A stretch of 39,402 bases of DNA from a virus (IMGVR_UViG_3300005077_000043:1-39402), one strand, 5' to 3'; counted from the stretch's first letter, positions 15,853-37,464 are shown. Made by a program: numbers and translations. Notes: generated by a model from the sequence alone, not told the origin.

Positions 15853-15870
15853 AAACACAAAGGAGCGATT

Positions 15871-16336: not shown

Positions 16337-17011
16337 ATGGCGTCGAAATCGCATATAGTTGATTCTCTCCTGGTCGAATGCGGAAAAGCATCGGCCGGGG
16401 TGAGGGAAGAAATCAGTCGGAAAGTTGGCGAGATTGCTCTCGATATGCTTCAGCAAAACGATGGTCGGTTCTCTGCCTTGAAAAAGACAGAGACTTATAC
16501 CATCGCTACCGATACGCTGAAGTATAAACTTCCGGCCGATTTCTTTGCGATTGCCGTCGAGTCCCAAGAGGTCGACAGTGATGGCGCCTACAAAAACATC
16601 GTCGAAATCGTCGATAAGGACGACATCCTGACCCGCAAACGGCAGGGCGCTTATTATGGGTATCGGCTCTGTTACATCGAGCTTGATACCGATAACGCTT
16701 CCGGCCGCGGGTGGTATTTAGTGTTGTCAGATTATGCCCCGTCGAGCGCGATATTCGAGATAGATTATTTCCGCGAACCGACCGAAGATGATGTCGATGC
16801 TATCAAAGAGACCAGCCTTCTGAAGTCGGGGGTGCGCGGGGCGTTGCCGCATTTGTTTTCGACCGCCGAAGTCGATTCATACAAATACATGAATCGGATA
16901 GACAAATATCAGGAGAGCCCGACCAAGACTCGGACTTCACTGTCGTATCGGCCGAACATCAGGACGCAGCGGCGCAACCAACTCATGCACCGTATCGGGA
17001 GGGGATCGTGA
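16337..17011 (+). CDS. Head-tail adaptor (tail tubular A-like), cytoplasmic copy
   Basis: Helical N-terminus, KYKLPADF motif, I.Y...P; no signal peptide. Confidence 0.7.
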   Translation: MASKSHIVDSLLVECGKASAGVREEISRKVGEIALDMLQQNDGRFSALKKTETYTIATDTLKYKLPADFFAIAVESQEVDSDGAYKNIVEIVDKDDILTRKRQGAYYGYRLCYIELDTDNASGRGWYLVLSDYAPSSAIFEIDYFREPTEDDVDAIKETSLLKSGVRGALPHLFSTAEVDSYKYMNRIDKYQESPTKTRTSLSYRPNIRTQRRNQLMHRIGRGS

Positions 17012-17664
17012 AGAAAATTGTATTCATACTTCTTCTGGTATTACTGCCCGGATTGCTGCAAGCCGCAACTCTGGGCGATTTGCTATGGCAGATGAATCAG
17101 AGAATCAATGAAGACACCAGCTATGCCCTGATCCCGGACACGGCGAAGATGCTGTTCCTCGATATGGCACAGTATTCTATTTCAAGAAACATGGACTATT
17201 TGCCGAAGCGCGTGGATGTGTCTTTCAGCCTCGATTCGATAAAGTATGCTTTGCCTTCCGATTTTGTCGGCCTGTCTGAAAATGCGGTCATGGCCCTTGA
17301 AGTTATCAGCGGTGTTGATACGGTCGGATGGTCTCCGGTATGGATGAATCCCGGATTTCGGATTGATACGACGGCGACCACCTATCAGTATTTTATTGCA
17401 TGGGAGACCTCGGCTCAGGCCGAGATATATTTGAAGGGAACCCGTTTTCTCGAGGGACAGACAATCAGGATATTTTATCGGGCATGGCCGAGTCAGTTGA
17501 CCGCGAGAACAGACACCGTTTCTATCCCGGTCCGCGACCAGGTTCTTGTCGTTCAGGAGGCGGTGAGTTATTACAAGCAGGCACAGGAAAATTATGCGGC
17601 CTTCCAATTATTGTGGAATATGATCCGTAGCGATATGGGGATCGGAGTGCAGGAGAAGCAATGA
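17008..17664 (+). CDS. Second adaptor/ring protein with signal peptide
   Basis: MKKIVFILLLVLLPGLLQA|ATLGDLL..MNQRINE; KYALPSDF motif; IRIFYRAWP. Confidence 0.75.
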   Translation: MKKIVFILLLVLLPGLLQAATLGDLLWQMNQRINEDTSYALIPDTAKMLFLDMAQYSISRNMDYLPKRVDVSFSLDSIKYALPSDFVGLSENAVMALEVISGVDTVGWSPVWMNPGFRIDTTATTYQYFIAWETSAQAEIYLKGTRFLEGQTIRIFYRAWPSQLTARTDTVSIPVRDQVLVVQEAVSYYKQAQENYAAFQLLWNMIRSDMGIGVQEKQ

Positions 17665-20309
17665 AGCGCTGGATACTACTGATAATCGCATTGATGAGTT
17701 TCTTGACGGCGGTATGGGGTCAGGAGTTTCAGGAGTCCGAGGTTTCTAACTTCTCCGGTGGTTTGGTCAATTCAATCAGTAATTCCGTGATGCGACCGAA
17801 CCAGGCGCTTGTTCTTGATAACTACGACATCGACAAATACGGCAATCTCAAACGACGCCCCGGAATGAGGTTAGTATATTCCGGTTCTGCAATTAACGAG
17901 TATGCTGCCCAATCGTTGATATCATATTATGGCCTTTGGTCGGCAAAAAGTTTGTTGGTAATGAGGAATGATACATCCCGCCATTCTGAAGCGTTGGCAA
18001 AGGCCGGGTTCTCGTCGTTGTTCAGTTGTGACGATGGTGTCTGTACTACCTTTGTTGCAGAAGATTATTACCAGTGGCGTAGCGCTTTGTCGTACCCATA
18101 CAGTTATGATTATAGTATCGTGAACAATAATCTCGTAATCGCCAACTCGAATACTGAGTTGTCGGTTTATGACGGGTCAAAAAGAATGATTGCCCGGCCG
18201 TATATCACGGGGCAGCCGAGGGTGCATGTCCTTAACGGCGCCGGAACCGTAACCGGGTCAGTCCGATATCGGTACATATACAGTAATGACGGTTGCCCTG
18301 CGCCATCTACTCCGTCGTATAGTGTGACTCCGGTTAATGGAATGGTATTTGTAGACGGCCTGACGCCAGCCGGAACTGGTGATACTATCCGTGTTTATCG
18401 TGAAGATAATTTCGGGGAATCGTGGCACCTCATTGATTCGTTGGTCGGTGACACCGCATTTATTGATTCGATGTCATTGACAACTGCGGCATTACAACCG
18501 ACGATTGAAATCGAGTGGTTCCCCGGCAGGGCTGCCATCCCGAAGAATACCGATACCCTTGATTATGACTCCGCCTGCCCCGGTGGAATAAATGTCTCGA
18601 TTGCCGACTCAGCACATTATTCATTGATTGTATGTGAGAACGGGCGTGGTGGTTATTGTCATTATCCCTGGGGTATTCAGCTTTTACCGGTTGGCATGGG
18701 CCCCGACACCTGCACGAATCAGATCGCTATTTACGGTGAGAATTATTGGGCCGCGTGGTCTGTTGTATTTGTGGACTCCGCTGGTCGGGCGAGTTATATG
18801 TCCCCTCCAACCATAAGATTAATCGGGAATTATGATGATGAGAAGGATTCCATCGGTTATTGGGTGACAAAAGCTAATTTGACCAATATCCCCGTTCCTT
18901 CAGGGATTGATTCCGCATCTATTGAAAAGAAGTATTTGCTGCGGGCGTATATCGACCCAAACAAAAGGCAGGAGGACGGACACGGCATGCAGGAAAGTGC
19001 TTCATATATGGCGTGGGATAGTGGCCTTACATACATTGACTCAAAAATAGGGAAGTTTTATATTGTTGCCGAACTTGACCCCTACGATGCAACACATACT
19101 GACAGTATATCATTCGATATGCTCGGCGATAGTTACGGTTCGTTTTCTTTCTCCGAATATTGTGACCTCGACCCCCTTTATATAAAAGTTGATTCTGCCA
19201 GTGACACCTGTGGAACCGGAACCCCATATTATGCCTATCGCTACCGATACGACCTTGATTCAACGAGCGTCCTTGACGCTATTACCGGATACTGCCGGGA
19301 TGATTCGACGATTACGTTCCAGCCAAGCTCCATTGAATATCTCAATTCAAGGATGTATGCCATCGGTGATGGTGCGAACCGCAATAGAATCTATATGAGC
19401 GATTTCGGTAAGCCCACGACATGGCCTTCAGATAAATTCATTGATGTACCTTCCAATAATGGTGATTGGTTCAATGGTTTGGGCCATGTCGGTCAATCAC
19501 TGGTGCTTTTCAAATATAATTCAATCTATCAGTTTTCTGGTCTGACGTTATACCAATACACCATTAGCGAAATAAGTAATGACAAGGGGGCGGCATCTTC
19601 TCGTTCTATTGCCAGTTTTAATGGCAATGTATATTTTGCTCATCCGAGTGGTATATATTCGGTCCCATTTTTTGATAGAAATCAGAGTGCGCTTTCCATC
19701 CCGATTAAGCAGTCGATAGATTCGGTTGCGAATAACATCGGGTCGTCGTTCGGCAAAATCATCCAAGACGAATATTGGTTTTCATGTGGCGTAACGGATT
19801 CTCTTCCTTCTAAGACGTATATATATAATCCCTTGCAGGGCAACTGGCGGGTTTACGATTTTGGCCTGATAGATGTCGCGCAATACGACACCCTGTCTAA
19901 TGGTGCATCGTACTCAACCGATAAGTATATCTTTCTCCTGAGCGATGATTCCCTTTATGAATGGAATTATTTTGGAGATACCCTTGATGCTGGTGCGCGG
20001 ATCGTGGCCACGTATCAGTCGAAGTATTTTTTTGATGACGGCCTGTCTCGGGAGAAGATAGGGTACCTTGATTTTGCGGGAACCGGGAAATGTGATTCGA
20101 TGATAGTCACTCTGTTTGACAATTACGGCCAAAGGACAATTTCCTGCGATACCATTTCACTTGATTTTACGGATAGCACCCGGCAGAGATATCCTATTAT
20201 GCGCGTTGCCGTAAACCTGTCCGTGAAGCTGCAAGACCTCGGTTATGGCGATTATACTCTTGAGAAGTATGTCATTGGATACAAACATTGGGATGAGGGG
20301 AAAAAGTGA
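17661..20309 (+). CDS. Tail nozzle (tail tubular B / P22 gp10-like) with signal peptide
   Basis: MKRWILLIIALMSFLTAVWG|QE then NFSGGL...N..ID..GNLKRRPG; NRIYMSD...P..W, LVLFK..SIY, GA.S..SI propeller motifs. Confidence 0.8.
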   Translation: MKRWILLIIALMSFLTAVWGQEFQESEVSNFSGGLVNSISNSVMRPNQALVLDNYDIDKYGNLKRRPGMRLVYSGSAINEYAAQSLISYYGLWSAKSLLVMRNDTSRHSEALAKAGFSSLFSCDDGVCTTFVAEDYYQWRSALSYPYSYDYSIVNNNLVIANSNTELSVYDGSKRMIARPYITGQPRVHVLNGAGTVTGSVRYRYIYSNDGCPAPSTPSYSVTPVNGMVFVDGLTPAGTGDTIRVYREDNFGESWHLIDSLVGDTAFIDSMSLTTAALQPTIEIEWFPGRAAIPKNTDTLDYDSACPGGINVSIADSAHYSLIVCENGRGGYCHYPWGIQLLPVGMGPDTCTNQIAIYGENYWAAWSVVFVDSAGRASYMSPPTIRLIGNYDDEKDSIGYWVTKANLTNIPVPSGIDSASIEKKYLLRAYIDPNKRQEDGHGMQESASYMAWDSGLTYIDSKIGKFYIVAELDPYDATHTDSISFDMLGDSYGSFSFSEYCDLDPLYIKVDSASDTCGTGTPYYAYRYRYDLDSTSVLDAITGYCRDDSTITFQPSSIEYLNSRMYAIGDGANRNRIYMSDFGKPTTWPSDKFIDVPSNNGDWFNGLGHVGQSLVLFKYNSIYQFSGLTLYQYTISEISNDKGAASSRSIASFNGNVYFAHPSGIYSVPFFDRNQSALSIPIKQSIDSVANNIGSSFGKIIQDEYWFSCGVTDSLPSKTYIYNPLQGNWRVYDFGLIDVAQYDTLSNGASYSTDKYIFLLSDDSLYEWNYFGDTLDAGARIVATYQSKYFFDDGLSREKIGYLDFAGTGKCDSMIVTLFDNYGQRTISCDTISLDFTDSTRQRYPIMRVAVNLSVKLQDLGYGDYTLEKYVIGYKHWDEGKK

Positions 20310-20758
20310 TCCGATACGCGATAATCGCTTTATTGGCGACGGTTGTGATGGCGGCAGAACCGGTTCCCGATTCTGTCGATACGTCGTTTAAGGACACCGT
20401 GTCGACAATAACTCCGACGGTCTCAGAGCAAGAGATTCTTGGCAAGGTCAGGACGGTCTATGATGTTGAAGGCCGGCCGATCAATCAATCGCAGGAGGCC
20501 AAGGGCTATCATCGAGTTGCCGGAAAAGCTACCCTAAAAAATGGGGTCGATACGGTCACGATCAATACCTCGACGGCCGATGGGCGCCAGGATATGAGTT
20601 TTCTTGGAGATTCGACTTATTCCGGCATGGCATGGTCTTTGGATGCTGGTAATGGCAATAGATATTGGATAGTCCCGATTGGAGGAAATAAATTCGTCGT
20701 GATGTCAAGCGATACGACAGATAATGCGACGGTCAGGTTTCAGGTTGAAGGAGAGTAA
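20306..20758 (+). CDS. Needle/short fibre-position protein with signal peptide
   Basis: MIRYAIIALLATVVMA|AE; C-terminal G.ATL.NG..TV...F.V.SS...D.ATV beta domain seen in phage fibres. Confidence 0.6.
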   Translation: MIRYAIIALLATVVMAAEPVPDSVDTSFKDTVSTITPTVSEQEILGKVRTVYDVEGRPINQSQEAKGYHRVAGKATLKNGVDTVTINTSTADGRQDMSFLGDSTYSGMAWSLDAGNGNRYWIVPIGGNKFVVMSSDTTDNATVRFQVEGE

Positions 20759-20759
20759 A

Positions 20760-21380
20760 ATGGGACCATTGCTTGCAACGTCTCTGATAAGCGGCGGCTC
20801 GAAATTGCTTGGCGGCCTTATTGGTGGTCTCGGTGGAAGCGGAGGCGGCGCTCCGACGATTCCACCTTGGCTTATCGAGATGGCCAAAAAGCAGTACGAG
20901 ATGGACAATTACACGGGATTCTTGCCGGATAAGCAGGCTTACTCAGCATCGGCACAGGCGGCCGTCGATAGTGTAATGTCCCGCCTGCCAATCTCGATGG
21001 AGAGCTTTAACGCCGATTTAGCATCGCGGGGGATATATGGCGCAGGAGAAGCACCCAAGTACATGTATCGTGATGTCATTGCCCCGGTCGCCCAGGCCGC
21101 CACAAATGCGGTGGCCCAATCCGAACTCGAATATGCTCGGGCGTATCAAAGTGGAAGCATTCAGGCTGCCCAGATGAAGCAGAACGCGTTCAATGTTCTA
21201 TCCGGCCTTGTCACGGGGAATGTCGGGTTGGAGCGGGAGAACTATGGTTACGAGCAGTCCGGCCGAAGCCAATTCTTTGGTGAACTGGGTAACATCTTTG
21301 GAGATATCGGTGGTTCAATCGGCTACGCAGTATTGATGGAGAAAATCTATGGCGGCGGTTCCGATGGAGGATACCAATAA
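20760..21380 (+). CDS. DNA ejection/pilot protein 1
   Basis: Gly-rich hydrophobic N-terminus, LASRGI.G motif, A/Q-rich helices, no Cys; AAGGAG SD before ATG 20760. Confidence 0.7.
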   Translation: MGPLLATSLISGGSKLLGGLIGGLGGSGGGAPTIPPWLIEMAKKQYEMDNYTGFLPDKQAYSASAQAAVDSVMSRLPISMESFNADLASRGIYGAGEAPKYMYRDVIAPVAQAATNAVAQSELEYARAYQSGSIQAAQMKQNAFNVLSGLVTGNVGLERENYGYEQSGRSQFFGELGNIFGDIGGSIGYAVLMEKIYGGGSDGGYQ

Positions 21381-22639
21381 TGGCTTTCAATTTCAATTCA
21401 GCCGCGGCCGGGATGAAAGGCGCCGGGGGCGGAGTGGCCCCTTATCAGCAGTCAATTTTTGAGTTGGCCGCCCAGAAGCGCAAGGACGACCAGAAGGCAA
21501 AAGGAGTCACGTCGGCGTATCGGACCCTCTTCCCAAATCTATCGTCGGAACAATCGGATGCGATGGGTATGCTGGCAATGATGGGACAAAATCTACCACC
21601 TGGGATTACCGACCAGATTCTCAATAAAGGCGTGAAAGATGAGTGGATGAAGGGCCTCGACCCGGAGACGCGGCAGATGCTTCAGGGCATGCCTCAGAAC
21701 GTCAAGGACAAGGCCGCCATGCAAATGTTCACTCAGAAGCAGATTTCAAACGAGGAAGATCGCCTTGTCGGGAATCTGATGGCCTTAAAGTCGCAGTTGA
21801 CGCTGCGGGCAGACGGGACGGTTGATTGGCAACGGACCCCGCCTGAGTTAGCGACGCGATATTCCAACGCGGTTGACCAGTCAATCTCTGATCCGGCGAT
21901 GCGGAACTATTTCAAACATGGTCAGTGGGCCGATGCGGGCAAGGAGGGTTCGGAGAAGAAGCTGTACGGCTCGTTCAATTCAACTGAAGATGCCATGTTG
22001 CAGAACATCCTGAATGACCCGAAAAAAGCCTATTGGGAGAATCTGGACTCCGGAGAGAAGGCGTTCCTGATTGGCAAGAAAATCGCTGATGGTCCAGTCG
22101 ATTGGCAAAAGAAAATGGGCACAGGTGAGATTGAAATGATGAAGGAAGCTGCCCCAAACGCCGAAAAACGAATTGGGGCGGCTCTGAAACTCCAACTTCC
22201 TTGGGGATGGACGGCCGACCAAGCATTTGAAGGGTGGCAAGCCGGTCTTCTTGATCCAAAAAAAGACCCGAAAACAGGAAAGGTCATTGATACATATAAG
22301 GGCATCCGCACGTTTCTTGAAGAGAATTATCATTATGGGACTAAAATGGTCAAGGATGAAGTTCTGTTCCGAGAAGCCTCAAATATGCTTGAAATCGGAA
22401 ATGCTATCGCGGACAACGCTAATCTGTCCGGCCCGTCGAAGCGCGTACATGCCGATTTGTTCCAGAAGTGGAAAGAGACCGAAGGACAGTGGTCGCCATT
22501 GCTCGTTGACTGGCTTGTCCAACAGGGCTATCCGCCCCTTGCTATTGAGCAGTTCAAGACGGCGTTCGAGTACATGAATAACAACGATACCGATGGCGCG
22601 ATTAAAGTAATCAAGTCGATGACCGGAGATGAAAAATAA
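21380..22639 (+). CDS. DNA ejection protein 2
   Basis: Helical, M/Q/G-rich, no Cys, middle gene of small-medium-large trio. Confidence 0.65.
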   Translation: MAFNFNSAAAGMKGAGGGVAPYQQSIFELAAQKRKDDQKAKGVTSAYRTLFPNLSSEQSDAMGMLAMMGQNLPPGITDQILNKGVKDEWMKGLDPETRQMLQGMPQNVKDKAAMQMFTQKQISNEEDRLVGNLMALKSQLTLRADGTVDWQRTPPELATRYSNAVDQSISDPAMRNYFKHGQWADAGKEGSEKKLYGSFNSTEDAMLQNILNDPKKAYWENLDSGEKAFLIGKKIADGPVDWQKKMGTGEIEMMKEAAPNAEKRIGAALKLQLPWGWTADQAFEGWQAGLLDPKKDPKTGKVIDTYKGIRTFLEENYHYGTKMVKDEVLFREASNMLEIGNAIADNANLSGPSKRVHADLFQKWKETEGQWSPLLVDWLVQQGYPPLAIEQFKTAFEYMNNNDTDGAIKVIKSMTGDEK

Positions 22640-25600
22640 TGGCTGACCCCGCCAACATGCCACATGGGATGTATGAAGAGTCCCAGGGATTTACGAAGAA
22701 ATGGTTTCGGGACGATCCCACCAAGTCGCAGAGCGTTTATGCTCTCGATTTCTCCAAGCGGCCGATGAATTCGGAGCCGTTTTCTTCGTATAAGCAGCGC
22801 ATGGAAGACACCATCAACGGCGTAATCAATTCCATCCCGCCCGAGGCTATCTTTGCCAAGACCAGTCCGGAGTTTCAGGATGCTGTCCGCCGGTTCATGG
22901 TCGACGGCGCCGATGGCGTGAATGATGAAGAAAAGACTCAGATACAGGCCGCTATGCGTGTTGGCATCCTACCGCCTGACCTTGAGAACAAGGGGTGGGA
23001 GAAAATCTTCAGGACTCCTGATGAAGAGTACGGGTTTCTAAAAGAAGTTGAGAAGACCGTGGACGAGGCTGATCGTCTGGGATTCAAGATATTCAAGGCG
23101 ATCACCGGAGACCCGGAATTATCAAAACTCCTTGAAGACGTTCTTTTTACGGATGTTCCGACCTTTGAGCCGGAGTTGGATGCGGCAGGGAAAGTCACGG
23201 GGGTGAAGCCGCCTAAAAGCGGTCCCTCGTCTGACCTTGAGTCGGCGAATGAGCTGCTTGATCGGTTCCTTGGTTCAATCGGTTTTGACAGGGAAACCGG
23301 AATGCGAGACCCTGATAGTTTCATCAACGTGGCAATACCGGAAGACCGCCAGAAATTCATGGATGCTGACTTGAAGCAGAAGATAAAGTATATCTTCGGA
23401 ACTCCGATGGGGATTATCGACAAGAACGTCTCGGGCATTCCAAAATTTTTGCTCAACGGCCTGAATGATATTGTTAATGGCGGCAAGCCGACAGGGAAGA
23501 ATGGTGAGCCGGCCGAGGAACCTTGGAAGGATAAGACCAAACGAATATTCACGAATTCTCTGCAACTCCTTCGTCCGATTGAGAATATGGTTATATTGCT
23601 TCAGCAGGGGGCCAAGGATGTGACTGGTGGGGTTCTGCCTGGTCCGCCAGCTTCGGATGAGCGCGTAAAGCAGGCGTATGTCGAATTCTACGACAATCCT
23701 CTTCTCCACTACTGGATGATTCGCGGCGGCATGTCAAAGGGCCTGAAGATGTATAAGAACGCCAAGGTCCGGGAATATGCGATTGCCCAATCCAAGGAAG
23801 CTCAACTCCAGCAACAAATCAACGATGCGGCTCAGGCGGCCGAAGATGCTCGGGTGGATGCCGGAATCAGGAAAGCCTTGGCCGATAGAAAAGAGGCTAA
23901 GGCTGCCGAAGTCCGGAAAGAAGTCGTTGACGAGACCGTGCAGGAATTCTCCGACTGGTCGAAGAAGCAGGCAGAAAAAGAGGCTCGGAGGGCCGCGCCA
24001 AAGGCGGAAGTTCCGGTCGAGGAGGTTAATCAGGCTCAGACCAACGAGATTCTGTCGAGCAAGCGGAATGATTTGGCCGCAAAGATCAAAGAGCGGAACC
24101 CGGAAGCGAATATCGATGAGATGACTCGGTATGAAATGGAATATCTGGAATCTGGCGGGAATATCAAACGGTATCCGAGATTCTACAAATCGGCCAAGGG
24201 TCCGGTCAAGGCCGGATTCTATGAGGGGGCCGAAGCCGAATGGATGCTGACCGGTGGCAAGAGCGGAACCGAGCCGTCAAACCCCATATATGTAAAGCCT
24301 ACATGGGAATACGAATCTTCCGCAAAGGTCAGGGCGCGGTTAGACCGCGGTGAACCGGCGTACACGAATCCCGATTATGTCCCCGAGCGATTGGCCCCTG
24401 AAGATATCGCCCCAAAAGTGCCCGTTAAACCGCCTGAGAAGCCCGTAGAGACGAAAACGAAATCAGAGCCACAACTACCCTTGGAAGAGCAGAAAGCCCC
24501 GGAGACGACGACTGGCACGCTGGAGGTGGCAAAGAAGATTGAGCCTGAAGAATGGTTCAGAGGTGAAGATAAAAGAAATTCTGGTGGTGGCGACAAATTC
24601 TATTCTGCCTCCGAGGATGTTGCTGGTAATTTTGGGAAAGTCTCAAAAGCCAATGCGTCTGATATGCCTAAGAACCCCCTTATTGTAGACAGTAAGGAGT
24701 CCCTCGCTGAAAGGATTGGGTATGATGGCGATCCGTTGGCCGAACCATTGAATGCCAAAGTCCGATTTGATGATTTGGCGAAAAGCTATGCCAAGAAAAA
24801 CGGACATGATGGTATTATTTATGAAAATGGCACGCTTGGAGAACGGGAGATGCACGTTTTCGTAGAAGGGGCAAAAAGGGTTGATTCTGATTCGAAATTG
24901 AAGCCTGGCAAAAAAACAGCCACCGGTCCCAAGCAGGAGCCGGTCACTGTCGTCGAGGACCGTGGCGATCTGGTCGACGTGAAGGGCGAGTTCGGTGAAG
25001 AGAAGACGGTCTCGAAACTTGACCTGACGAAAGAAGAGAAGATTACTCCGCCTGAACAGACAGAGGGCTACAAGGCTGGCCGAGAAGTTATTGTACCGAT
25101 GAAGGATATCAATGTTGACACGAAGCGGTTTCAGCCGAGAACCACAGAATTTTCAGAGGATTCGGCCGCTCGGCTTGAAGGGAATTACGATAATCGATAT
25201 TTGGACCCGATAGTAGTCTGGCGCGATCCGGTTGGTAAGAAAATCTACGTCTTGTCAGGGCATAGTCGATTTGAGGGGCTTGGTCGGGCAAAGCAGACAG
25301 AGGCGCCGGTTCGATTTTTTGAGGGAACCGAATCCGAAGCGATTCAGTATGCTCATGGATTAGCCAACGAAGGGGCCACCCCATTAACAATTCAGGCCAA
25401 GATTAAAAGCTATCAGACGCTTAAAAGCACCGGGATGGATAATGCGGGATTGAAAAATGTTTTTGGTCCCAATCTTCTGCCCCGTCTTGAGGCATATCAA
25501 AACTTGTCCCCGCTCGGAAAATTCATTGAGTACATGGATAATAAGAACACCGACTTGGCGACTCCGGGCATCAACCATTTTGCCCGATGGATAGGGGAGT

Positions 25601-28600
25601 TGCGCGAAAAGTATGGGGACAAACTGACCAATTATCATGAGAACCAATTATTCGAGTACCTCTATCAGAGCGGAAAAAATCATTATACGATGCCAAAGGA
25701 CAAATTCGTGGCCCTGATTGATAAAAACATGGGAGACGCTTTACGAACCCCAGAGATGCCACTTGATCTCGGGCAGGAAATGAATGTCGGTCTACATGCT
25801 CGGGCCGATACCGGTCCGATCGTGGCCGAAATTCGTCGTCAAAGGAAAATCTTCGATGAAGCAAAGGAGATGAGAAACAATGCCCAGACGGTTCAGGAAA
25901 TCAAGGCGCAGAGTGATATTATGGACGAGGCCCAACGTGAGATTTCCCGGTTGCAGGGCGGCATTGATGAATTGGTTGAGAAGCAGGGCGATATGTTTGC
26001 GGAACCGGCGAAGCCCTCGGGTAAGACCCCGCCGGCAGACATACCGGGGGCCGAGTTTGACAAGCTGTCTCCGGTCGAGAAGTTTTCTGTAATTCGGAAG
26101 CGCGTCAAGATGGCCGAAGAAGCCGGGGAAAAGAGCATGGTGGATGACCTGAAGGAAATCGTCAGGTCGGAGCCGGACGGCATCAAGTATTTCGAGAAGT
26201 ACGATGCTCTGGAAACAGAGGCAAAAGCCCGTCTACGAGAACTCGGTGAAGAGGCGATGAATAACCTGTCGTCCGGCGTTGATCCGGTTCTGGCCGCAAA
26301 GACAATCAAGGAACTGGCAACAATCGGTTACGCGAAGATGGCAAAAGGCTTACTCCGTCTCGATGATTGGTCCCGCGAAATGATTGCCGAACATGGCGAC
26401 AACATCCGGTCTATCATCCCTGAGATATATGCCAAAGCTCGCCGTATATTCCGTGGTCATTCTATGACCTTCAGAATGATCCGGAACCAGAAGGAGGCCG
26501 ATTACATTAAAATCACCCGGCAGGTCCGCGATGAGATTTACAAGGTCAACGACCAGACCCGGAAATGGGATAAGGAATATACTGAAGCCGAACGCAATGA
26601 TGTCGGAGCCATGATCGAAGGTATTGACAATATAGCCGAAAACAGGCCCCCGATTGTGAATGATAGAACGCGAGCCCTGCGAGATGCCTATCGGCCCTTT
26701 ATTGAGCAGCAGAGGCAGAACGTGAATGCGTACCTGGCTGGCTTCACAGAGGGCGAATACATTGACTTCACCGAGAATTATTTGATGCACCTGTACGAGG
26801 GGCGACCTGACCATATTAAAAATGTCGTCAATACGAAGCTCATTCACAGCCCGAGTGCCAAAGCTCGAAAAATGATCACCTTGAAGGAGGCGATGGGTGC
26901 CGGGCTGAAGCCGGTAACTCAGGATGTCTCTTATCTGACGAGGGTATGGGCCGATATGAACTGGCGAATTGCCGGAAATCGTAAGATTGCCAACATGCTT
27001 AAAAATTCCTTTGACGAATTCGGGAATCGTGCTTTGTCGTTAAAGCCACCGGAAAATTCAACTGGTTGGGAACGGTTCGATTCCCCCGCCCTGAAGCGTT
27101 CATTCGCTATGCAGGGGCCGCCGAGATTTGAAGTCCGAAAGAAAGGCGCTGCCAGGGCTACTCGAATCTTTGATACCCATGAAGAGGCCGCGTCCTTTGT
27201 CGCCACTAAAAGGAATCAATATTTTGATGTGAATCAGATCAAGGGTGATATGATCGTTCATCAGGCAAGTGTTTGGGTGGCGCCGGAGTATCGACGTATT
27301 GCTCACATGGCTTTTGATAATCCTTATGCCAAACGGGAGTGGTTGGGGTATCATTATGATGTCCTGAATGGATTGACAAAATCCACCGCGCTGCTTGCAT
27401 CGTTCTTCCACAATATCAACCAGTCTGAATCAGGTGTGGCGATGCTCGGCGTTAAAGAGATATACAATATCTCGACCGGCCGGGCCAGTTGGAAGATCGG
27501 GAAGAAACTTATTTCTGAAAACCCCGAGTTTGTCAGTGATGCAATTATGCACGGTCTTCAGCCAGCATCAAATATGCAGGCGGATATGGGATTCGGCCAC
27601 GTAGACCGATTCTTCCGTTCAACGGAAAATTATCTCAACCGAAAAAGTATTCCTTATGCAGGCGATGTCGTCGGTATTTTCCGGAAAGCCCATGACAAAA
27701 TGAATCGGCACCTTTGGAGTGATATCCATGAGGGCTATAAATTCTATACCTATTACAAGCTGACCAGTGACATATTGCAGAAATTCCCCGATGCGACTCC
27801 CGAGATGATTAAGCAAATCAAGGAATCGATTGCGGCCAGCATCAATAATGGTTTTGGTGGTCAGGAATGGGAATCGCATCTCTGGCTCAGGCCGCGAAAT
27901 CTTATGTATGCTCGCAGGGCCTTACTTGCCCCTGACTATACGTGGTCAAACCTTCGCATCGCCGGTGTCCAGACGAAGACGTTTACCGATCCGATTGCTC
28001 GCCGAGTGATGGCGAAGTATTGGGTAAATATGGCATTGGGTATTGGAGCTGCTACCGTTGCTTTGAATTACGCTATCACGGGGCACGGCCCTTGGGACAA
28101 TGAGTATGACCATAAATACGATATTGAGGTGACTCCGATAATCAAGGCCGGGAAGATGGTCTGGTCAAAGATGCCGTTGACCGAGGATTATGATTGGGAT
28201 GCTGATAAGACTCATTACTATGCCCGGCTCGGTAAGCAGGCGCGAGAGATTTTCGGGTGGTTTACCGAGCCTTGGAAGACAGTCGGGAATAAGATGGGGA
28301 TGTTGTCTCGTCAGGTGATTAATCAGGCAACTGGTACAGAAATTGGTTCCGGTTGGGAAATGCCGTGGCGCAAGGAAGACCTCGACCTTTGGGAGAATTT
28401 GGAAGAACGGGCCAAACATGCGGCCTCGATGTTCCGGCCGTTCTCATTCAGCGAATCGCAGTTTGCTTTCACCGTCCCGATGTACAAGGGTATGTCTCCC
28501 TACAAGGGCATCAAGGCGTATCAGGAAGCACTGGACGCGAAGTCGTGGACAGTATTTGGCGAACCGACAATCAAAGAGAACGCTATCCGGGAAATCAGCG

Positions 28601-28968
28601 ATGCCCTGATATTGAATGGTCAGGATGGACCCGGCCTGTTTAAGATCGCTCTGGGTGGGGTCAAGTCGAAATATTATAAGCTGTTCTATGATCAATACGA
28701 AAAGGGTGACTTCGACGGAATGGAAGAGACGGCGGTTAAGCTCCTGCAGTTGCAGGCGACGTGGAGTAATTTGGAACAGAGCTTGTCGGCGCGAGGCGCT
28801 ACCAGAGAAGACTTGATTGAGGCTCGAAGAGTTTGGCGAAGCAAGATGGGACTGCCGCCGATGGGCGATTTATATGAAAATATTATCGGTCCCGATAAGA
28901 TTATGCAGCAAAGGATAGAGGAATTGAAAAATAAGTTCAATCAAGATATTGCTCCGGGAGGGGAATGA
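22639..28968 (+). CDS. Large ejection / polyvalent protein with ART-like and ParB-like domains
   Basis: 2109 aa, no Cys; FRG..FYS...NPL...GHDGII...E.E..VF; RFQPR...PIVVW...VLSGHSR; helical C-terminal region. Confidence 0.75.
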   Translation: MADPANMPHGMYEESQGFTKKWFRDDPTKSQSVYALDFSKRPMNSEPFSSYKQRMEDTINGVINSIPPEAIFAKTSPEFQDAVRRFMVDGADGVNDEEKTQIQAAMRVGILPPDLENKGWEKIFRTPDEEYGFLKEVEKTVDEADRLGFKIFKAITGDPELSKLLEDVLFTDVPTFEPELDAAGKVTGVKPPKSGPSSDLESANELLDRFLGSIGFDRETGMRDPDSFINVAIPEDRQKFMDADLKQKIKYIFGTPMGIIDKNVSGIPKFLLNGLNDIVNGGKPTGKNGEPAEEPWKDKTKRIFTNSLQLLRPIENMVILLQQGAKDVTGGVLPGPPASDERVKQAYVEFYDNPLLHYWMIRGGMSKGLKMYKNAKVREYAIAQSKEAQLQQQINDAAQAAEDARVDAGIRKALADRKEAKAAEVRKEVVDETVQEFSDWSKKQAEKEARRAAPKAEVPVEEVNQAQTNEILSSKRNDLAAKIKERNPEANIDEMTRYEMEYLESGGNIKRYPRFYKSAKGPVKAGFYEGAEAEWMLTGGKSGTEPSNPIYVKPTWEYESSAKVRARLDRGEPAYTNPDYVPERLAPEDIAPKVPVKPPEKPVETKTKSEPQLPLEEQKAPETTTGTLEVAKKIEPEEWFRGEDKRNSGGGDKFYSASEDVAGNFGKVSKANASDMPKNPLIVDSKESLAERIGYDGDPLAEPLNAKVRFDDLAKSYAKKNGHDGIIYENGTLGEREMHVFVEGAKRVDSDSKLKPGKKTATGPKQEPVTVVEDRGDLVDVKGEFGEEKTVSKLDLTKEEKITPPEQTEGYKAGREVIVPMKDINVDTKRFQPRTTEFSEDSAARLEGNYDNRYLDPIVVWRDPVGKKIYVLSGHSRFEGLGRAKQTEAPVRFFEGTESEAIQYAHGLANEGATPLTIQAKIKSYQTLKSTGMDNAGLKNVFGPNLLPRLEAYQNLSPLGKFIEYMDNKNTDLATPGINHFARWIGELREKYGDKLTNYHENQLFEYLYQSGKNHYTMPKDKFVALIDKNMGDALRTPEMPLDLGQEMNVGLHARADTGPIVAEIRRQRKIFDEAKEMRNNAQTVQEIKAQSDIMDEAQREISRLQGGIDELVEKQGDMFAEPAKPSGKTPPADIPGAEFDKLSPVEKFSVIRKRVKMAEEAGEKSMVDDLKEIVRSEPDGIKYFEKYDALETEAKARLRELGEEAMNNLSSGVDPVLAAKTIKELATIGYAKMAKGLLRLDDWSREMIAEHGDNIRSIIPEIYAKARRIFRGHSMTFRMIRNQKEADYIKITRQVRDEIYKVNDQTRKWDKEYTEAERNDVGAMIEGIDNIAENRPPIVNDRTRALRDAYRPFIEQQRQNVNAYLAGFTEGEYIDFTENYLMHLYEGRPDHIKNVVNTKLIHSPSAKARKMITLKEAMGAGLKPVTQDVSYLTRVWADMNWRIAGNRKIANMLKNSFDEFGNRALSLKPPENSTGWERFDSPALKRSFAMQGPPRFEVRKKGAARATRIFDTHEEAASFVATKRNQYFDVNQIKGDMIVHQASVWVAPEYRRIAHMAFDNPYAKREWLGYHYDVLNGLTKSTALLASFFHNINQSESGVAMLGVKEIYNISTGRASWKIGKKLISENPEFVSDAIMHGLQPASNMQADMGFGHVDRFFRSTENYLNRKSIPYAGDVVGIFRKAHDKMNRHLWSDIHEGYKFYTYYKLTSDILQKFPDATPEMIKQIKESIAASINNGFGGQEWESHLWLRPRNLMYARRALLAPDYTWSNLRIAGVQTKTFTDPIARRVMAKYWVNMALGIGAATVALNYAITGHGPWDNEYDHKYDIEVTPIIKAGKMVWSKMPLTEDYDWDADKTHYYARLGKQAREIFGWFTEPWKTVGNKMGMLSRQVINQATGTEIGSGWEMPWRKEDLDLWENLEERAKHAASMFRPFSFSESQFAFTVPMYKGMSPYKGIKAYQEALDAKSWTVFGEPTIKENAIREISDALILNGQDGPGLFKIALGGVKSKYYKLFYDQYEKGDFDGMEETAVKLLQLQATWSNLEQSLSARGATREDLIEARRVWRSKMGLPPMGDLYENIIGPDKIMQQRIEELKNKFNQDIAPGGE

Positions 28969-29228
28969 TGTTAAAAAAGATTGAAGAGACACTGAATGGA
29001 CGGACAAAGCTGGCCATTGACCTCGTTGGACTATTCCTGAGCCTTCTGATTATCCTAAGTGCCATTATGAAAAGTCATTATGCCACAGAAAACTCAATCA
29101 ACGAGATTAAGGCTCAACAGGCGATTCAGTTTGAAAATATCAAGGACGGGATCAATCGGAATACCGTCAGGATTGAGCGGATAGAAAACCTTTATATCCG
29201 TGGAGAGGGTAATCATGCAGCACCGTAA
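28965..29228 (+). CDS. Single-TM plus coiled-coil membrane protein
   Basis: LAIDLVGLFLSLLIILSAIM followed by heptads ending RIERIE. Confidence 0.7.
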   Translation: MMLKKIEETLNGRTKLAIDLVGLFLSLLIILSAIMKSHYATENSINEIKAQQAIQFENIKDGINRNTVRIERIENLYIRGEGNHAAP

Positions 29229-32544: not shown

Positions 32545-32546
32545 AA

Positions 32547-32789
32547 ATGGCTAAGTACAGAAAAATTCCTGTTGTCGTTGAGGCGGTAAGATACTTCGGA
32601 GCAAATGATGAAGAGATATTCTCCTTTTCTGGAGATAAGGTAAGAGTTGGTAATGACTCCTTGATTGTTCCAACTCTTTCAGGGGATGTAAAACTCAGGC
32701 GTGGCTGGTGGCTTCTCAAGGGTGTGGATGGAGAACTGTACCCCTGTGAGCCTGGCATTTTTGAAAAAACATACGAAAAGGTGGAGTGA
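32547..32789 (+). CDS. Widespread small phage protein (YRK.PV.VEA...KGV.GE.YPC.P.IFEKTYE)
   Basis: Recognised motif; no signal peptide. Confidence 0.8.
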   Translation: MAKYRKIPVVVEAVRYFGANDEEIFSFSGDKVRVGNDSLIVPTLSGDVKLRRGWWLLKGVDGELYPCEPGIFEKTYEKVE

Positions 32790-33577
32790 TGCGGAAGATA
32801 CTTTTACTTGTCATTATCCTGCTGTTGTTACCGTGGACACTACGGGCGGCTGATGTCACGATTAACAGTCAGGACTCGACCCAAGACACGTATTTGCGAG
32901 AAGCCACAGCGACAACAAACTATGGAACGGCGACGGCGATTCGAGTAGGATATGATATTAATAGTTGCATGACCGGGCATACAACATCTTGGGTAAAAGT
33001 GAATCTTGACGGAACAGGGTATGACACTTGCTCGGGAATGTTGATTATCACGACACTTGGATACGATTTGACCGACGGCACAGCGGATACGATAGACGTA
33101 TTCCGATGCACCCGGGCCGCGGTTGTAGGTCAAGCGACATGGAATATATACTCAACCGGTAATAGTTGGACTACGGTTGGCGGTGATTTCGATACGAGTC
33201 ATTCGTCTGGATTTTGGCAGAATAATGGGGCGTTTATTGTCAGCGACCTCGGCAGTTCTAATGTTTGTACGTTGTCCGTTCCACACGCCGGGGTTGATTC
33301 TATGATGCAGGGGCTTTTGACTAATAACGGGCTGATTCTGGTCGCCAGAAGCTACTGGAGGGACCACATTAACTGCCCGACGAATGCTGCGACAACTCTT
33401 GTTATACAATCGGAAGATTATGGAACACCGGCATCGAGGCCGCAGTATGTATTAAAAGATGTTGGGATCCCCGCTGCTGGCGGCCCGACCCCACAAGTAA
33501 TAATAATCGGGAGAAATGATGCTGAAGACCATTTTAATAAGTTTGGTTCTTTGCCTCGTCGCTATTTCATCAACTAA
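32786..33577 (+). CDS. Secreted DNRLRE/CBM96-like domain protein
   Basis: MRKILLLVIILLLLPWTLRA|AD; DTYL......NYG, ATWN, W...GGD, NNGLIL, SE.....RP motifs. Confidence 0.75.
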   Translation: MMRKILLLVIILLLLPWTLRAADVTINSQDSTQDTYLREATATTNYGTATAIRVGYDINSCMTGHTTSWVKVNLDGTGYDTCSGMLIITTLGYDLTDGTADTIDVFRCTRAAVVGQATWNIYSTGNSWTTVGGDFDTSHSSGFWQNNGAFIVSDLGSSNVCTLSVPHAGVDSMMQGLLTNNGLILVARSYWRDHINCPTNAATTLVIQSEDYGTPASRPQYVLKDVGIPAAGGPTPQVIIIGRNDAEDHFNKFGSLPRRYFIN

Positions 33578-36089
33578 TGCGGCTATCGTAACGGCTGACC
33601 ATAATGCAGTGGACCAGTACGAGGACATACCAGCAGCTTGGCGGGATTCCATCGCTACGAAATATATCTGGCAACTGCACCAATCTCACGGTTGCCGGAA
33701 TATCTGTGGTATGGAATACCTGTACGCTGACAACAGCACCCTTCATCATGTCCCGTTTGTCGGCTCTGAATGGTGGACTTCGAACTGTGGCGCATCTGAC
33801 TTAGGACAAGGCGGGGATACTTGTTATATAAATATTCTCCGAGATACCTTAACAAACAATTCCGACATCGATGCTATCACATGGTCATTCTCCCACAATA
33901 CCACAACGAACGACTCTTTAGATGTCATTGCTCATATAACGGCAATGCACAATCTGGCAAGCGACTTCCCTAATGTCGCTGTTATTATGCAGACAGCGCA
34001 GTTGGGTTATTCGACCTTTACTCAAGGACACCGTGATAGTATTACTCAGTTGAACCACTGGGTTCGAGGTCTGGCTGATACTATTACCCTTGATAATTTT
34101 TTCATATTCGATGTCGCGGATATCCTTGGGTTTAACCGGAATACTCAACAATACGATTCAACGGCTCACTGCTCAACTGACGCTTGGATTGAAACATACA
34201 TTTCGGATTCAAGCATAACTCCGGTTGAGTGTGAATATATTACAAATACAGACCTGACTTGGACAACTGCGGCCAATATCGGCGACTGGAACTGCCATCA
34301 TGCGGGGAATGTCACAAGTTACGTCCCTTACAACTGCCCCGACGCCGCAAACTATATCTGCGAGTCTCACGGCAAGGCGATGCTCTGGTTGCTTGCTCGT
34401 TCGGCTGGTTGGGAAGGTGTGGATGTCAATGAAAACATCTGGTATGTTTCGAAGGCCAATGGTGACGATGCGAATGGTGGGCATTCGTGGGATGATGCGT
34501 TTCGAACCATTGATGCCGTAAACAATAATTTAATTGCCGGCGATACCGTAGTATTCGGCGCCGGTGTTTATGATTCACTTCAAATCATCCCCCCTCTCAA
34601 TGGGGCCGACTCGGGCTGGACGTTGTATATAGATTCATCAAAGTATTACGGAGGACCAGGGTTTACGGCGACTCTTTCAGGTGGCGAGAATATCACTGGA
34701 TGGGTGATTTACTCTAACACGGATTCTGTCGATGTATGGGTTGCTGTTGGTCATGCCTTTCGAGATACATGGACTGGCTCTGCTGGTGACGAAGGTGGTG
34801 ATTTGGCCCGATGCTGGACTCTTCGCTATGGCGACTCGCTGTTCAAACCTTACAATAGTATCGACTCCCTTTTGAAGTACGGTAATTATACGATGTGTCA
34901 TAGGGAGAATGCTGGCGGGACGGCCAACGACACAATCTATATTGGACTTCCTAATGGCATCACCCCTTCAAACCTCGGGACTATTCGTGGTTCGGCTCGT
35001 CCGGTATTCCGTTTTGCTGAGGACGCCCAACAAAAGATTAGGATTGAAGGATTTAAGATATATGACGGTAAACAGGGTTGTGTTTTATTTACAAACGGGG
35101 CGGTCGATTCAATTCAAATTGTCTCATGCTCTCTGAAATTTGTAGGACATGGGTATGGTGAAAATCCTGCTTTGATTATGTCTCGGACAAAAGCGTTCGG
35201 CCCACCTGTCTATTTCAAAGTTGCAACTCACGTTGAGATCTATAACTGTGACTTTACAAAAGCGATAGGAACGAACGACTCATACTACGAACATTCCGGC
35301 TCGGGGATAGAAGGGTACTGTGCTGAATACTGGCGCGTCAAGGGGTGTTCTTTCCGAAACCTGCCTGGTACTGGTCTTTATTGGAAAAACGAAATCGATA
35401 TCCACGACACGATGATGTCAAATAACGTCGTCGATTCATGCTATTTTAATAATCTCGGTGGGTATGGTGTCTGCGCCGGTGAAACCGGTATCCACGATAC
35501 AGTTATCAACTGCATCTTTGACAGTATTGGTGAAGCGGCGATATCCCTGAATCATCAAGTGACGAACCTTCATGGTGGTCATGCTATTCTAAACAATACT
35601 ATACGCCGGTGTAATAACGCTATATGGGATTGGCACGCAGAAGATTCGACACTAACGACGACTGCAAAATATAATATTGTAAGTCGGACTTACGTCACTA
35701 TTTGGGATGGGTGGAGATACCGGACTGGCGATTATTATCGACACTATGCTTTCCGGTCTGATGCAAACTACGACCAGTGGGATATTGATTCAAACTGGTA
35801 TGACGCAAATGTGACAGATTCTACTGCAACCCCGTTCCGTTCTGCCGGCGACCGCAACTTTGCCGGTTGGCAGTCTCAGGGGCACGACTCAACAGCGGGA
35901 GCCGTGACAGAATTATTCATGGATTGGGATTCATATATGTTCTACGATACAACCAGTTTTACAATAGATGTGACGCACTCCGGTCGGACATGGACGCATC
36001 CCGGCGCTAATTGGGGTGTTCTTTCAACAACGCGGTTCCATAAGATTGAAGGTACTGCCATCGTTGGTGGCAAAGTGAGGATACCATAA
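33516..36089 (+). CDS. Secreted two-domain protein: SGNH-like alpha/beta domain plus beta-helix
   Basis: MLKTILISLVLCLVAISSTNA|AI; HQSHG, FDVADI, W.LAR.AGW.G; YVS..NGDD.N.G.S...AF.TI and AGDTV (DUF1565-like) then beta-helix repeats. Confidence 0.75.
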   Translation: MMLKTILISLVLCLVAISSTNAAIVTADHNAVDQYEDIPAAWRDSIATKYIWQLHQSHGCRNICGMEYLYADNSTLHHVPFVGSEWWTSNCGASDLGQGGDTCYINILRDTLTNNSDIDAITWSFSHNTTTNDSLDVIAHITAMHNLASDFPNVAVIMQTAQLGYSTFTQGHRDSITQLNHWVRGLADTITLDNFFIFDVADILGFNRNTQQYDSTAHCSTDAWIETYISDSSITPVECEYITNTDLTWTTAANIGDWNCHHAGNVTSYVPYNCPDAANYICESHGKAMLWLLARSAGWEGVDVNENIWYVSKANGDDANGGHSWDDAFRTIDAVNNNLIAGDTVVFGAGVYDSLQIIPPLNGADSGWTLYIDSSKYYGGPGFTATLSGGENITGWVIYSNTDSVDVWVAVGHAFRDTWTGSAGDEGGDLARCWTLRYGDSLFKPYNSIDSLLKYGNYTMCHRENAGGTANDTIYIGLPNGITPSNLGTIRGSARPVFRFAEDAQQKIRIEGFKIYDGKQGCVLFTNGAVDSIQIVSCSLKFVGHGYGENPALIMSRTKAFGPPVYFKVATHVEIYNCDFTKAIGTNDSYYEHSGSGIEGYCAEYWRVKGCSFRNLPGTGLYWKNEIDIHDTMMSNNVVDSCYFNNLGGYGVCAGETGIHDTVINCIFDSIGEAAISLNHQVTNLHGGHAILNNTIRRCNNAIWDWHAEDSTLTTTAKYNIVSRTYVTIWDGWRYRTGDYYRHYAFRSDANYDQWDIDSNWYDANVTDSTATPFRSAGDRNFAGWQSQGHDSTAGAVTELFMDWDSYMFYDTTSFTIDVTHSGRTWTHPGANWGVLSTTRFHKIEGTAIVGGKVRIP

Positions 36090-37012
36090 TGAAGAAAATG
36101 TTGATTATATGCCTGTTTTTTGCGTCCTTAGCCTTCGCGCAGGCAACAGGAAATCTCTGGCCGTACTATGAGTTTAAGTCGGCTGATTCGGCCTTCCTGA
36201 TACTCCATAATTCTTCCGGCTTTGACACTCTTGTTTCTGTCACGGACACGACTCGGATAGACACTTCAATCTCTTGTGGCTCACTCGCCGACGGTGTAAA
36301 CGTCCTCGAATTTGCCGTCTACTATATCGGTGATACAACCAAGTATTCGGCGACCGATATTTTCAATAACGTCTATACAGGTGGAGATGCTGCTGCGGGC
36401 AGTTTGTCTGTGAAGTACGATGTTGCCTTTTGTGACTCAATAATGATGATTCACGAATCACAAGGGTCAGTTGATACGACAATATGGACTTCGGTTTATG
36501 GAATAGACACTACTATTGCCTGCGCCTCAATGGATATTGGCGTTCATAATTTCATTGTTCGCTTTCTGTATAACGGAATAACCGATTGGCTTTCGGGGTC
36601 GATTATCTTCCACAACTCATCAGCCGCGGGCGGGGTCACTTATGCCAGTACATCGGTCGATTACGTGACTTGCTACATAAATATGGCATATAGCCAAGTG
36701 TCGCCGGGCGGAGTGTTATCAAAGATCACCAGCGGTAAAGCCTTCTTGACTTTAATAGGTGAGCCGGGGATTCACTTCTGCGATTCAACATGGGGATTTA
36801 TTCCGATATCGTATCCGGCAAAAGCGGATCCTAATGGTCGATTCACATTTTATGTTCCGGCCAATACAAAGCTCTGTCCGCCTGGCTCGTATTACGAGCT
36901 TCGATTTGCGGGGATACCGGGCAGTTATTTCTTCGGGTCATCTTATACCCGCTTTCTTGTTGACACGCTGCCCGACCCGCTGAACATTCTTGACGCGCCG
37001 AGGGTACCGTGA
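36089..37012 (+). CDS. Secreted protein with two internal repeats and fibre-anchor-like C-terminal domain
   Basis: MKKMLIICLFFASLAFA|QA; repeats around IDTSISC/IDTTIAC; ADPNGRF...PAN...PPGSYY. Confidence 0.7.
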   Translation: MKKMLIICLFFASLAFAQATGNLWPYYEFKSADSAFLILHNSSGFDTLVSVTDTTRIDTSISCGSLADGVNVLEFAVYYIGDTTKYSATDIFNNVYTGGDAAAGSLSVKYDVAFCDSIMMIHESQGSVDTTIWTSVYGIDTTIACASMDIGVHNFIVRFLYNGITDWLSGSIIFHNSSAAGGVTYASTSVDYVTCYINMAYSQVSPGGVLSKITSGKAFLTLIGEPGIHFCDSTWGFIPISYPAKADPNGRFTFYVPANTKLCPPGSYYELRFAGIPGSYFFGSSYTRFLVDTLPDPLNILDAPRVP

Positions 37013-37461
37013 TGAAAGACCATCCCCATTATGAAATCATACGCCGGATAGCCTTTGCTCATTATAATGTGGCCTATATCTACGGCGGGAAGAAGTATCG
37101 GATCGGGTTCGATTGTTCGGGGTTCGTTCATGATATCCTAACGGCGGTCGGGCGCCTTCCGGAAATAAAGACGGGTATGTCGGCCGCGATGATATTTGAT
37201 TATTTCAAATCTCGAGATTACCAGGTCTTCCAGGGGGCTCCGTTTGAGGGCTGTCTGGTTTTCTACGGGAGCCTATTTCGTATCAGCCACATAATGTACT
37301 GCCTTGACGGAGGAATAACGATAGGAGCTGCGGGAGGCAGCGAGAAGTGTACTACAGTGTCAAAGGCGGCCGAACTCGATGCGCGGGTGAAGTGCTTGCC
37401 CTATAACTATCGGGACGATGTTGTTGGATTCATAGATATCTTCGAAAAAGAAAAGAGGTAA
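37009..37461 (+). CDS. NlpC/P60 peptidoglycan endopeptidase (endolysin)
   Basis: Y.YGG, GFDCSGFV catalytic Cys, G.LVFY, SHI catalytic His; no signal peptide. Confidence 0.88.
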   Translation: MMKDHPHYEIIRRIAFAHYNVAYIYGGKKYRIGFDCSGFVHDILTAVGRLPEIKTGMSAAMIFDYFKSRDYQVFQGAPFEGCLVFYGSLFRISHIMYCLDGGITIGAAGGSEKCTTVSKAAELDARVKCLPYNYRDDVVGFIDIFEKEKR

Positions 37462-37464
37462 ATT

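Follow-up and report, generated by a model that had tools for sequence, protein, structure and literature searches.

Late genes of the window

The window analyzed here is a 39,402-bp virus record (IMGVR_UViG_3300005077_000043), a single contig that lacks terminal repeats and represents a genome fragment. Its late operon, on the plus strand, runs in the order terminase, portal, scaffold, capsid, two further genes, adaptor 1, adaptor 2, nozzle, 20306, ejection-type genes, 28965, spike- and carbohydrate-binding-module (CBM)-like genes and lysis genes, where genes without a name are called by their first position. Seven tail-type genes of this operon (17008, 17661, 20306, 29215, 32789, 33516 and 36089) begin with Sec-type leaders, and the genes for the head, the first adaptor and the ejection-type proteins do not. 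In the list below, leader counts refer to orthologues, and motif counts to the putative O-glycosylation motif D-S/T-[AILVMT], observed vs. expected from composition-preserving shuffles.

8323–8940, +: probable small terminase; leaderless; precedes terL; homologues in L002 and L003
8927–10684, +: large terminase; leaderless; phrog_2, E 4e-22; leaders 0/5
10668–12698, +: portal, by position and size; leaderless; phrog_332 connector, E 1.5e-9; leaders 0/6
12949–13785, +: probable scaffold, by position; leaderless; leaders 0/7
13796–14989, +: SU10-type major capsid protein; leaderless; PF17236, E 1.8e-19; leaders 0/7
15001–16335, +: 15001 and 15871, leaderless late genes (270 and 154 aa); order conserved; leaders 0/7 and 0/9; motif ratios 0.48 and 0.55
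16337–17011, +: adaptor 1, predicted first (cytoplasmic) ring; PF24175 in orthologues; leaders 0/10; motif 8 vs. 7.1
17008–17664, +: adaptor 2, Sec-type leader LQA/A; PF24175 and fold; leaders 13/13; motif 52 vs. 12.4 (orthologues pooled)
17661–20309, +: nozzle (tail hub), Sec-type leader VWG/Q; phrog_511, E 1.7e-16, and fold; leaders 13/13; motif 185 vs. 38.3 (orthologues pooled)
20306–20758, +: 20306, small beta protein, leader VMA/A; leaders 8/8; motif 23 vs. 5.5 (orthologues pooled)
20760–28968, +: three ejection-type proteins (206, 419 and 2109 aa); leaderless, Cys-free; leaders 0/8, 0/7 and 0/5; motif ratios 1.3, 0.9 and 0.5
28965–29228, +: single-transmembrane protein with coiled-coil-like C-terminus; same position in L001 and L002
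29215–32544, +: spike- or fibre-like protein, leader AYS/G; 28 motifs vs. 6.7
32789–33577, +: CBM96-like protein, leader LRA/A; PF24517, E 1e-5, just below cut-off; start may be GTG 32786
33516–36089, +: beta-helix spike-like protein, leader TNA/A, 21 Cys; PF13229, E 8e-4; 20 motifs vs. 4.1
36089–37012, +: conserved late protein, leader AFA/Q; 9 motifs vs. 1.5; homologues in G287 and G288
37012–37710, +: leaderless NlpC/P60 probable endolysin (PF00877, E 1e-7) and holin-like membrane protein (hydrophobic 81-aa open reading frame)
37707–38195, +: small outer-membrane beta-barrel-like protein with leader and no motifs; placed with OMP-barrel and PagL-like clusters in the ESM Atlas (score 0.96)

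The putative ejection role of 20760–28968 is assigned from position and composition or domains, and the putative virion role of 29215, 32789, 33516 and 36089 from position and domains. The C-terminus of 29215 is common to a 1672-aa leader-bearing protein of G288 (E 2e-11), a homologue of 33516 is present in the G017 phage, and the G287 and G288 homologues of 36089 also bear leaders (E 8e-17 and 2e-19). The products of 15001 and 15871 had no PHROG match; they might decorate the head or plug it temporarily.

Leaders were called from sequence only, by a hydrophobicity and cleavage-site heuristic with inspection and no trained predictor. By this measure, all seven open reading frames (ORFs) to which a first-pass annotation had given signal peptides have the features of Sec export and signal peptidase I cleavage, namely a basic n-region, an uncharged hydrophobic core and small residues at −3 and −1. 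The leader cores reached 9-residue mean Kyte-Doolittle values of 3.1–4.1, a level from which the interiors of the same proteins were clearly separated (0 of 74 internal 45-residue windows reached 2.8, the highest being 2.0). Terminase, portal, scaffold, capsid, 16337 and the three ejection-type ORFs were leaderless, as that annotation had also held, and so were 15001 and 15871. Beyond the seven, an eighth leader was found on 37707, a probable outer-membrane barrel, and a single transmembrane segment in 28965. An SD (Shine-Dalgarno)-like purine run occurs at all seven starts, in keeping with the earlier description. Translational coupling, proposed for all of them, held in part: 17008, 17661, 20306, 32786/32789 and 36089 overlap the preceding stop codon, but 29215 and 33516 overlap the preceding gene by 14 and 62 nt, respectively, and are not simply coupled. 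The in-frame open stretch upstream of the start spans 3–13 codons in six genes and 72 in 17008, where adaptor 1 is overlapped.

Tail identity and conservation of the leader partition

The two central leader-bearing genes had been read as adaptor and nozzle, and their folds bear this out. In 17008, PF24175 (SU10_adaptor) scored above cut-off and aligned residues 21–199 to model positions 2–174, so that the adaptor domain opens right after LQA/A as had been claimed. The structural model of mature 17008 (predicted local distance difference test, pLDDT, 85; 13 sequences) matched the phicrAss001 ring 7qoj (E 1e-6) and the SU10 adaptor 7z47, and also the adaptors of cyanophage A4, KHP30, Pa223 and VP1. 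For 17661, the 20 top listed Foldseek matches were all podovirus tails, led by SU10, A4 and crAss001 (E 2e-13). Profile searches of PDB sequences gave nothing significant for adaptor 1, adaptor 2 or nozzle, and the adaptor and nozzle identities therefore rest on Pfam and folds. The nozzle motif was likewise located just past the cleavage site, the F of FSGG being residue 31 in 17661, and many leaderless nozzle homologues have FSGG at about residues 9–25 with no hydrophobic stretch ahead. Because these leaderless homologues are numerous and distant and carry FSGG near the N-terminus, the leader has, as judged from the alignments, been either gained or lost by a core virion protein.

At E ≤ 0.1, PF24175 is matched by 6 of the 10 orthologues of adaptor 1 (E 4e-6 at best), and adaptor 1 has a basic, conserved C-terminus in the alignment. 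Profile comparison between adaptor 1 and adaptor 2 was weak (probability 18%), and their kinship is drawn from the PF24175 family common to both. By sequence family, 16337 and 17008 are thus both predicted SU10-type adaptor rings, and the export boundary would therefore fall between two related rings. The third gene, 20306, is 44–49% identical in 7 relatives, with a weak K1-lyase_C match (E 0.05) and no Atlas match; by position, its product is a candidate needle, plug or fibre knob.

Relatives were collected by nozzle-alignment scans, which gave 17 loci; three duplicates were dropped and ORF starts in the remaining 14 were picked by hand. All 14 loci keep the same gene order. Whether relatives keep the partition had been left as a check, and they do: with the window included, leaders were called on every second adaptor (13/13), nozzle (13/13) and copy of 20306 (8/8), compared with 0/78 pooled head, first-adaptor and ejection-type orthologues. 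The leader sequences themselves diverge across this deep clade, and their leader properties are retained.

A nozzle profile search against 1.84 billion representatives yielded 70 sequences at E ≤ 1e-30 and 621 at E ≤ 1e-10, from which the best 150 were used. A cleavage site was called in 51 of 56 close full-length nozzles, and the remaining five have their first residue within or beyond the leader region, as expected of truncated gene calls. Gln is the +1 residue in 29 of the 51 automatically called nozzles, which accords with the Q-rule (PMC5837995). On an unrooted FastTree phylogeny of the last 360 nozzle residues (131 rows, 14 truncated or doubtful rows excluded, the region being non-homologous in a few rows), the leader label required 4 changes vs. 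42.7 with shuffled labels. The tree placed 66 leader-bearing rows on one branch and three small groups elsewhere, and a switch to exported nozzles may have occurred more than once.

The tail architecture is of a known kind, in which an adaptor ring with helix bundle and beta dock domain lies under the portal and the nozzle has a beta-propeller and platform; 17008 and 17661 fit these two parts. The window tail resembles the Kuravirus SU10/T7-type podovirus tail in its capsid (PF17236), adaptor family (PF24175) and nozzle fold, and the gene order portal-scaffold-capsid-adaptor-nozzle-ejection-fibres is that of SU10, the tail of which contains adaptor gp11, nozzle gp17 and needle gp18 (PDB 7z47, 7z4b; PMC9509320). 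However, SU10 has one adaptor-family ring and the window two, and the second ring, the nozzle and the distal proteins of the window bear leaders and glycosylation motifs, with the PF24175 model beginning at the mature start. The invariant leaders on the second adaptor and nozzle set the family apart from the leaderless, cytoplasmic tail of the SU10/T7 type. The phicrAss001 tail barrel, built of stacked rings and a muzzle (PDB 7qoj, 7qok), was the best fold match of adaptor 2; its muzzle was among the top nozzle matches, and stacked related rings occur in both. In contrast to phicrAss001, the window family has two rings and a temperate genome of 40–50 kb. The crAss001 rings are presumably cytoplasmic and leaderless.

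Some relatives vary the leader-bearing part of the operon. Four adaptor-2 orthologues (L001 9054–9947, L003 9078–9992, L005 9085–10002 and L013 7683–8564) have an internal insert of about 85 aa that resembles a duplicated beta dock domain, and L017 has apparently two tandem adaptor-2 genes. Extra leader-bearing genes stand between adaptor 2 and nozzle in some relatives (L006 679–1134; L065 10576–13274). Two distant phages (L054 6974–7510; L055 11776–13218) have leader- and motif-bearing genes between portal and scaffold, the sequences of which suggest exported head decorations. In the window, a leaderless 80-aa phrog_419 gene at 32547–32789 breaks the run of putatively exported distal genes.

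Glycosylation motif, cysteines and host

The motif D-S/T-hydrophobic marks non-cytoplasmic proteins that are modified in the periplasm (PMC12871550). Across the seven window proteins, D-S/T-[AILVMT] was observed 92 times vs. 19.4 expected, and control motifs stayed flat (E-S/T-x, 3 vs. 7.3; reversed motif, 19 vs. 20). The excess is significant in six of the seven, including adaptor 2 (5 vs. 0.8), nozzle (22 vs. 4.2) and 20306 (5 vs. 0.8) as well as the distal 29215, 33516 and 36089, with third-position preference T, I, L, V, A. None of the leaderless window proteins tested was enriched, and 37707 had 0 motifs vs. 0.6. With orthologues pooled, motif ratios were 4.2, 4.8 and 4.2 in the three exported core families vs. 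0.5–1.3 in ten leaderless families. Among 145 nozzle homologues of at least 440 aa, the 74 that bear a leader had a median ratio of 4.3 and the 71 that do not a median of 1.05 (Mann-Whitney p 1e-15, a value inflated by kinship, with the leaderless set including about ten truncated close relatives that are themselves enriched). Off the main branch of the tree, 6 of 8 leader-bearing nozzle rows had a ratio of at least 2.2. Composition or beta-turn bias was rejected as the cause of the excess, since shuffles keep composition, controls are flat and leaderless homologues are not enriched. Furthermore, 53 of 56 close nozzles have either both or neither of Cys123 and Cys128, a covariation that suggests a disulfide.

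These data bear on whether the leaders act at all. It is very unlikely that they stay uncleaved and act as membrane tethers, or that translation from downstream starts bypasses them, with the tail assembled on the cytoplasmic face as usual. Cleavage here is predicted from sequence, and a Met stands just before DFSGG in some nozzles (e.g., L002 and L016), as that explanation would have it. However, this Met is not a conserved residue, and in the window nozzle no start codon lies between cleavage site and FSGG. The retention of small-residue cleavage sites and of +1 Gln also argues against it, and cytoplasmic assembly leaves unexplained a periplasm-specific motif in the mature part that is absent from leaderless homologues of the same family. 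The first-pass annotation had the tail proteins mature outside the inner membrane, and this is well supported by leaders kept across a deep clade, the folds, the glycosylation motif and the Cys pair; export, cleavage and periplasmic modification of these proteins are very probable on this evidence. Of the findings named beforehand as refuting it, none turned up among those put to the test. The glycosylation signal and the membership of both 16337 and 17008 in the SU10-type adaptor family go beyond that annotation.

Compared with Bacteroidota-type O-glycoproteins, the window is alike in having the D-S/T-hydrophobic motif in leader-bearing proteins only, with +1 Gln common, but its substrates are viral structural proteins, and its likely host phylum is small (285 genomes), with motif enrichment of its own proteins in 2 of 4 bins with data. 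The 28 window ORFs scanned yielded no phage glycosyltransferase. Glycans on virion proteins, as predicted for the window tail, are known from the mycobacteriophages Che8 and Rita, in which the capsid is modified and glycosyltransferases are phage-encoded (PMC11256854). In the window, by contrast, the tail is the predicted target, and the modifying system implied is a periplasmic one of the host. The coat proteins of filamentous (Ff) phages and Sec or signal-arrest-release (SAR) endolysins (PMC6116005) are phage proteins on the host Sec pathway, as predicted for the window tail. Ff phages are tailless single-stranded DNA viruses that are extruded through the membrane. Exported endolysins are not virion parts, and the window has a leaderless endolysin and a tail core predicted to be exported.

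Two close relatives sit in bins labelled Ignavibacteriales (G001) and Phycisphaerae (G002). In G001's phylum, of which the 285 genomes are apparently the whole group, 7 of the 284 other genomes held distant nozzle genes on contigs of 7–47 kb. In all seven of these phages, the nozzle and the upstream second ring bear a leader and excess motifs, and the large ejection-type genes bear neither. No nozzle was found in 300 other sampled genomes of G002's phylum, where two matches, short and weak and in ORFs of 1736 and 3220 aa, were left uncounted (Fisher p 0.006 for carriage in the two phyla). Host leader proteins, sampled at 7–25 per bin (G149 yielded zero), were motif-enriched in G001 (89 vs. 37, 2.4×) and G171 (41 vs. 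17, 2.4×). Binning, together with mixed evidence, makes a diderm of G001's phylum the probable host. The Phycisphaerae-labelled bin G002 is doubtful as a host, having no motif enrichment and no nozzle elsewhere in the phylum as sampled.

Relative G288 is complete at 52,110 bp with terminal repeats, and because it has an integrase and a helix-turn-helix (HTH) repressor-like gene the family, by gene content, includes temperate phages; an integrase is also present in the G017 phage. Temperate relatives would suit a module that is a host-domesticated or defective phage-derived surface machine, or distal genes that are secreted lysogenic-conversion enzymes, and no virion anchor was recognised in any of the four distal proteins. 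This is highly improbable for the module, in which terminase, portal, capsid, ejection-type and lysis genes are intact in conserved order, in a family with a complete genome and a single nozzle gene in each genome seen; for single distal genes it may apply. Among 50,697 phage records, tblastn found no cultured relatives by capsid or adaptor 2 and two weak partial matches by nozzle.

Lysis genes and the proposed assembly route

In the canonical model, a leaderless endolysin implies a large-hole holin, and lambda cells without spanins linger as spheres bounded by the outer membrane (PMC6116005). A heuristic scan found no lipobox ORF (o-spanin) in the window or in G288. The leaderless endolysin together with the apparent absence of a lipobox ORF therefore favours docking of the tail after holin triggering, inside the outer membrane. 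We consider it reasonably likely that this podovirus family splits its particle by compartment, with an exported tail that is pre-assembled in the periplasm and docks on the filled head after holin triggering. Adaptor 2, nozzle, 20306 and the spike-like proteins would be exported via Sec, and head, portal, ejection-type proteins and adaptor 1 would stay cytoplasmic. In the periplasm, host enzymes would cleave the exported proteins, form their disulfides and attach O-glycans, and the tail would pre-assemble there. Holin holes would then join the compartments, and the tail would dock on adaptor 1 of the filled head within the still-intact outer membrane. More speculatively, adaptor 1 (through its basic C-terminus), the ejection proteins or the products of 15001 and 15871 would seal the head in the meantime, and the purpose would be a tail coated with host glycan and stabilised by disulfides. 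The timing at holin triggering is likewise speculative.

Joining of heads and exported tails only after complete lysis, in debris or medium, would fit the same sequence evidence for export. Lambda and T4 heads and tails reportedly join in vitro. Such a route is nevertheless unlikely, as it would be costly, with the parts diluted once the outer membrane ruptures and unsealed heads losing DNA (PMC3741392), and the apparent lack of an o-spanin favours a confined stage instead.

The single-transmembrane gene 28965 raises the other possible timing, in which the exported tail docks across the intact inner membrane before lysis by means of a dedicated membrane protein, for which 28965 is the candidate, and particles finish in the periplasm. 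The gene is kept between ejection and spike genes in 3/3 genomes examined (the window, L001 20771–21037 and L002 19912–20205), has 3 motifs vs. 0.5, and early docking across the membrane would shorten the unsealed state. We regard this as rather unlikely: no encoded product is large enough to move a capsid across a membrane, an ordinary endolysin-holin block is present, and the one hint on 28965, a weak match of its L001 copy to the holin/anti-holin phrog_10340 (E 0.011), points to lysis. 28965 is thus a candidate holin/antiholin-like protein or membrane anchor for tail assembly.

Several points weigh against docking of an exported tail after holin triggering, or against the export on which it depends, in addition to the heuristic nature of the leader calls and the unrecognised anchors of the distal proteins. 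DNA escapes from P22 particles that lack the needle plug, even ahead of lysis (PMC3741392), and an exported nozzle would therefore need a temporary seal. The nozzle model is mediocre (pLDDT 68, template modelling scores of 0.2–0.3 to its matches), the three motifs of 32789 vs. 1.7 are not significant, and the first ring of G086 also exceeded the hydrophobicity threshold. P0133 and P0143, distant leader-bearing nozzles in a separate small group, have no motif excess, a pattern expected for exported tails in a host without a D-S/T glycosylation system. Host leader proteins were not enriched in G005 (20 vs. 19.5, n = 7), G017 (12 vs. 21, n = 11) or G002 (19 vs. 21), and as none of the phage contigs seen in bins has host flanks, the links to hosts depend on binning.

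Literature searches of open-licence papers and bioRxiv gave no report that adaptor, nozzle or core tail proteins are exported, and the two-compartment assembly route would be new. Textbook tailed phages finish their virions in the cytoplasm, and lysis merely releases them. On balance, the evidence leans toward a widespread group of tailed phages that assemble their virion in two compartments. The head would be built in the cytoplasm and the tail, with its DNA-sealing nozzle and glycans from the host, in the periplasm; the cell, breached by holin but wrapped in its outer membrane, would be the final assembly chamber. If so, lysis would be an assembly step rather than release alone, and, lacking the nozzle, a podovirus head would have to retain its DNA by some new means. 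The tail would bear the glycan of its last host, and host range or stability could depend on that previous host. The leader and motif signature would also allow virion proteins to be sorted by compartment from sequence alone and would serve as a pointer to host type.

A leader-bearing, outer-membrane-barrel-like gene of 160–180 aa without glycosylation motifs recurs in relatives, after endolysin and holin-like genes where this block is seen and with no o-spanin seen. In addition to 37707–38195 of the window, copies lie in L026 (16331–16870), L063 (10710–11237) and, on the minus strand, L029 (2826–3320), L061 (3219–3698) and L066 (17819–18334), and leader-bearing ORFs of similar size occur in G287, G288, G017, G171 and G086. 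The PagL-like Atlas cluster for 37707 is 96% viral among its matches. Window, G287 and G288 proteins are alike in position and type, with weak BLASTP matches (E 0.007 and 1.7) that do not establish orthology. The barrel-like protein may replace spanins or act in lysogenic conversion.

Scans of the window for tRNAs, promoters or terminators and repeats gave nothing above chance. The left end (222–935) encodes a DnaC-like helicase loader (phrog_50, E 6e-30), the remaining replication module lying outside the contig. A 37-nt inverted repeat (76%; 7327–7363 and 8185–8221) stands in an AT-rich region just upstream of the late operon, where it overlaps the best sigma-70-like site (8161–8189) and is a possible operator pair.

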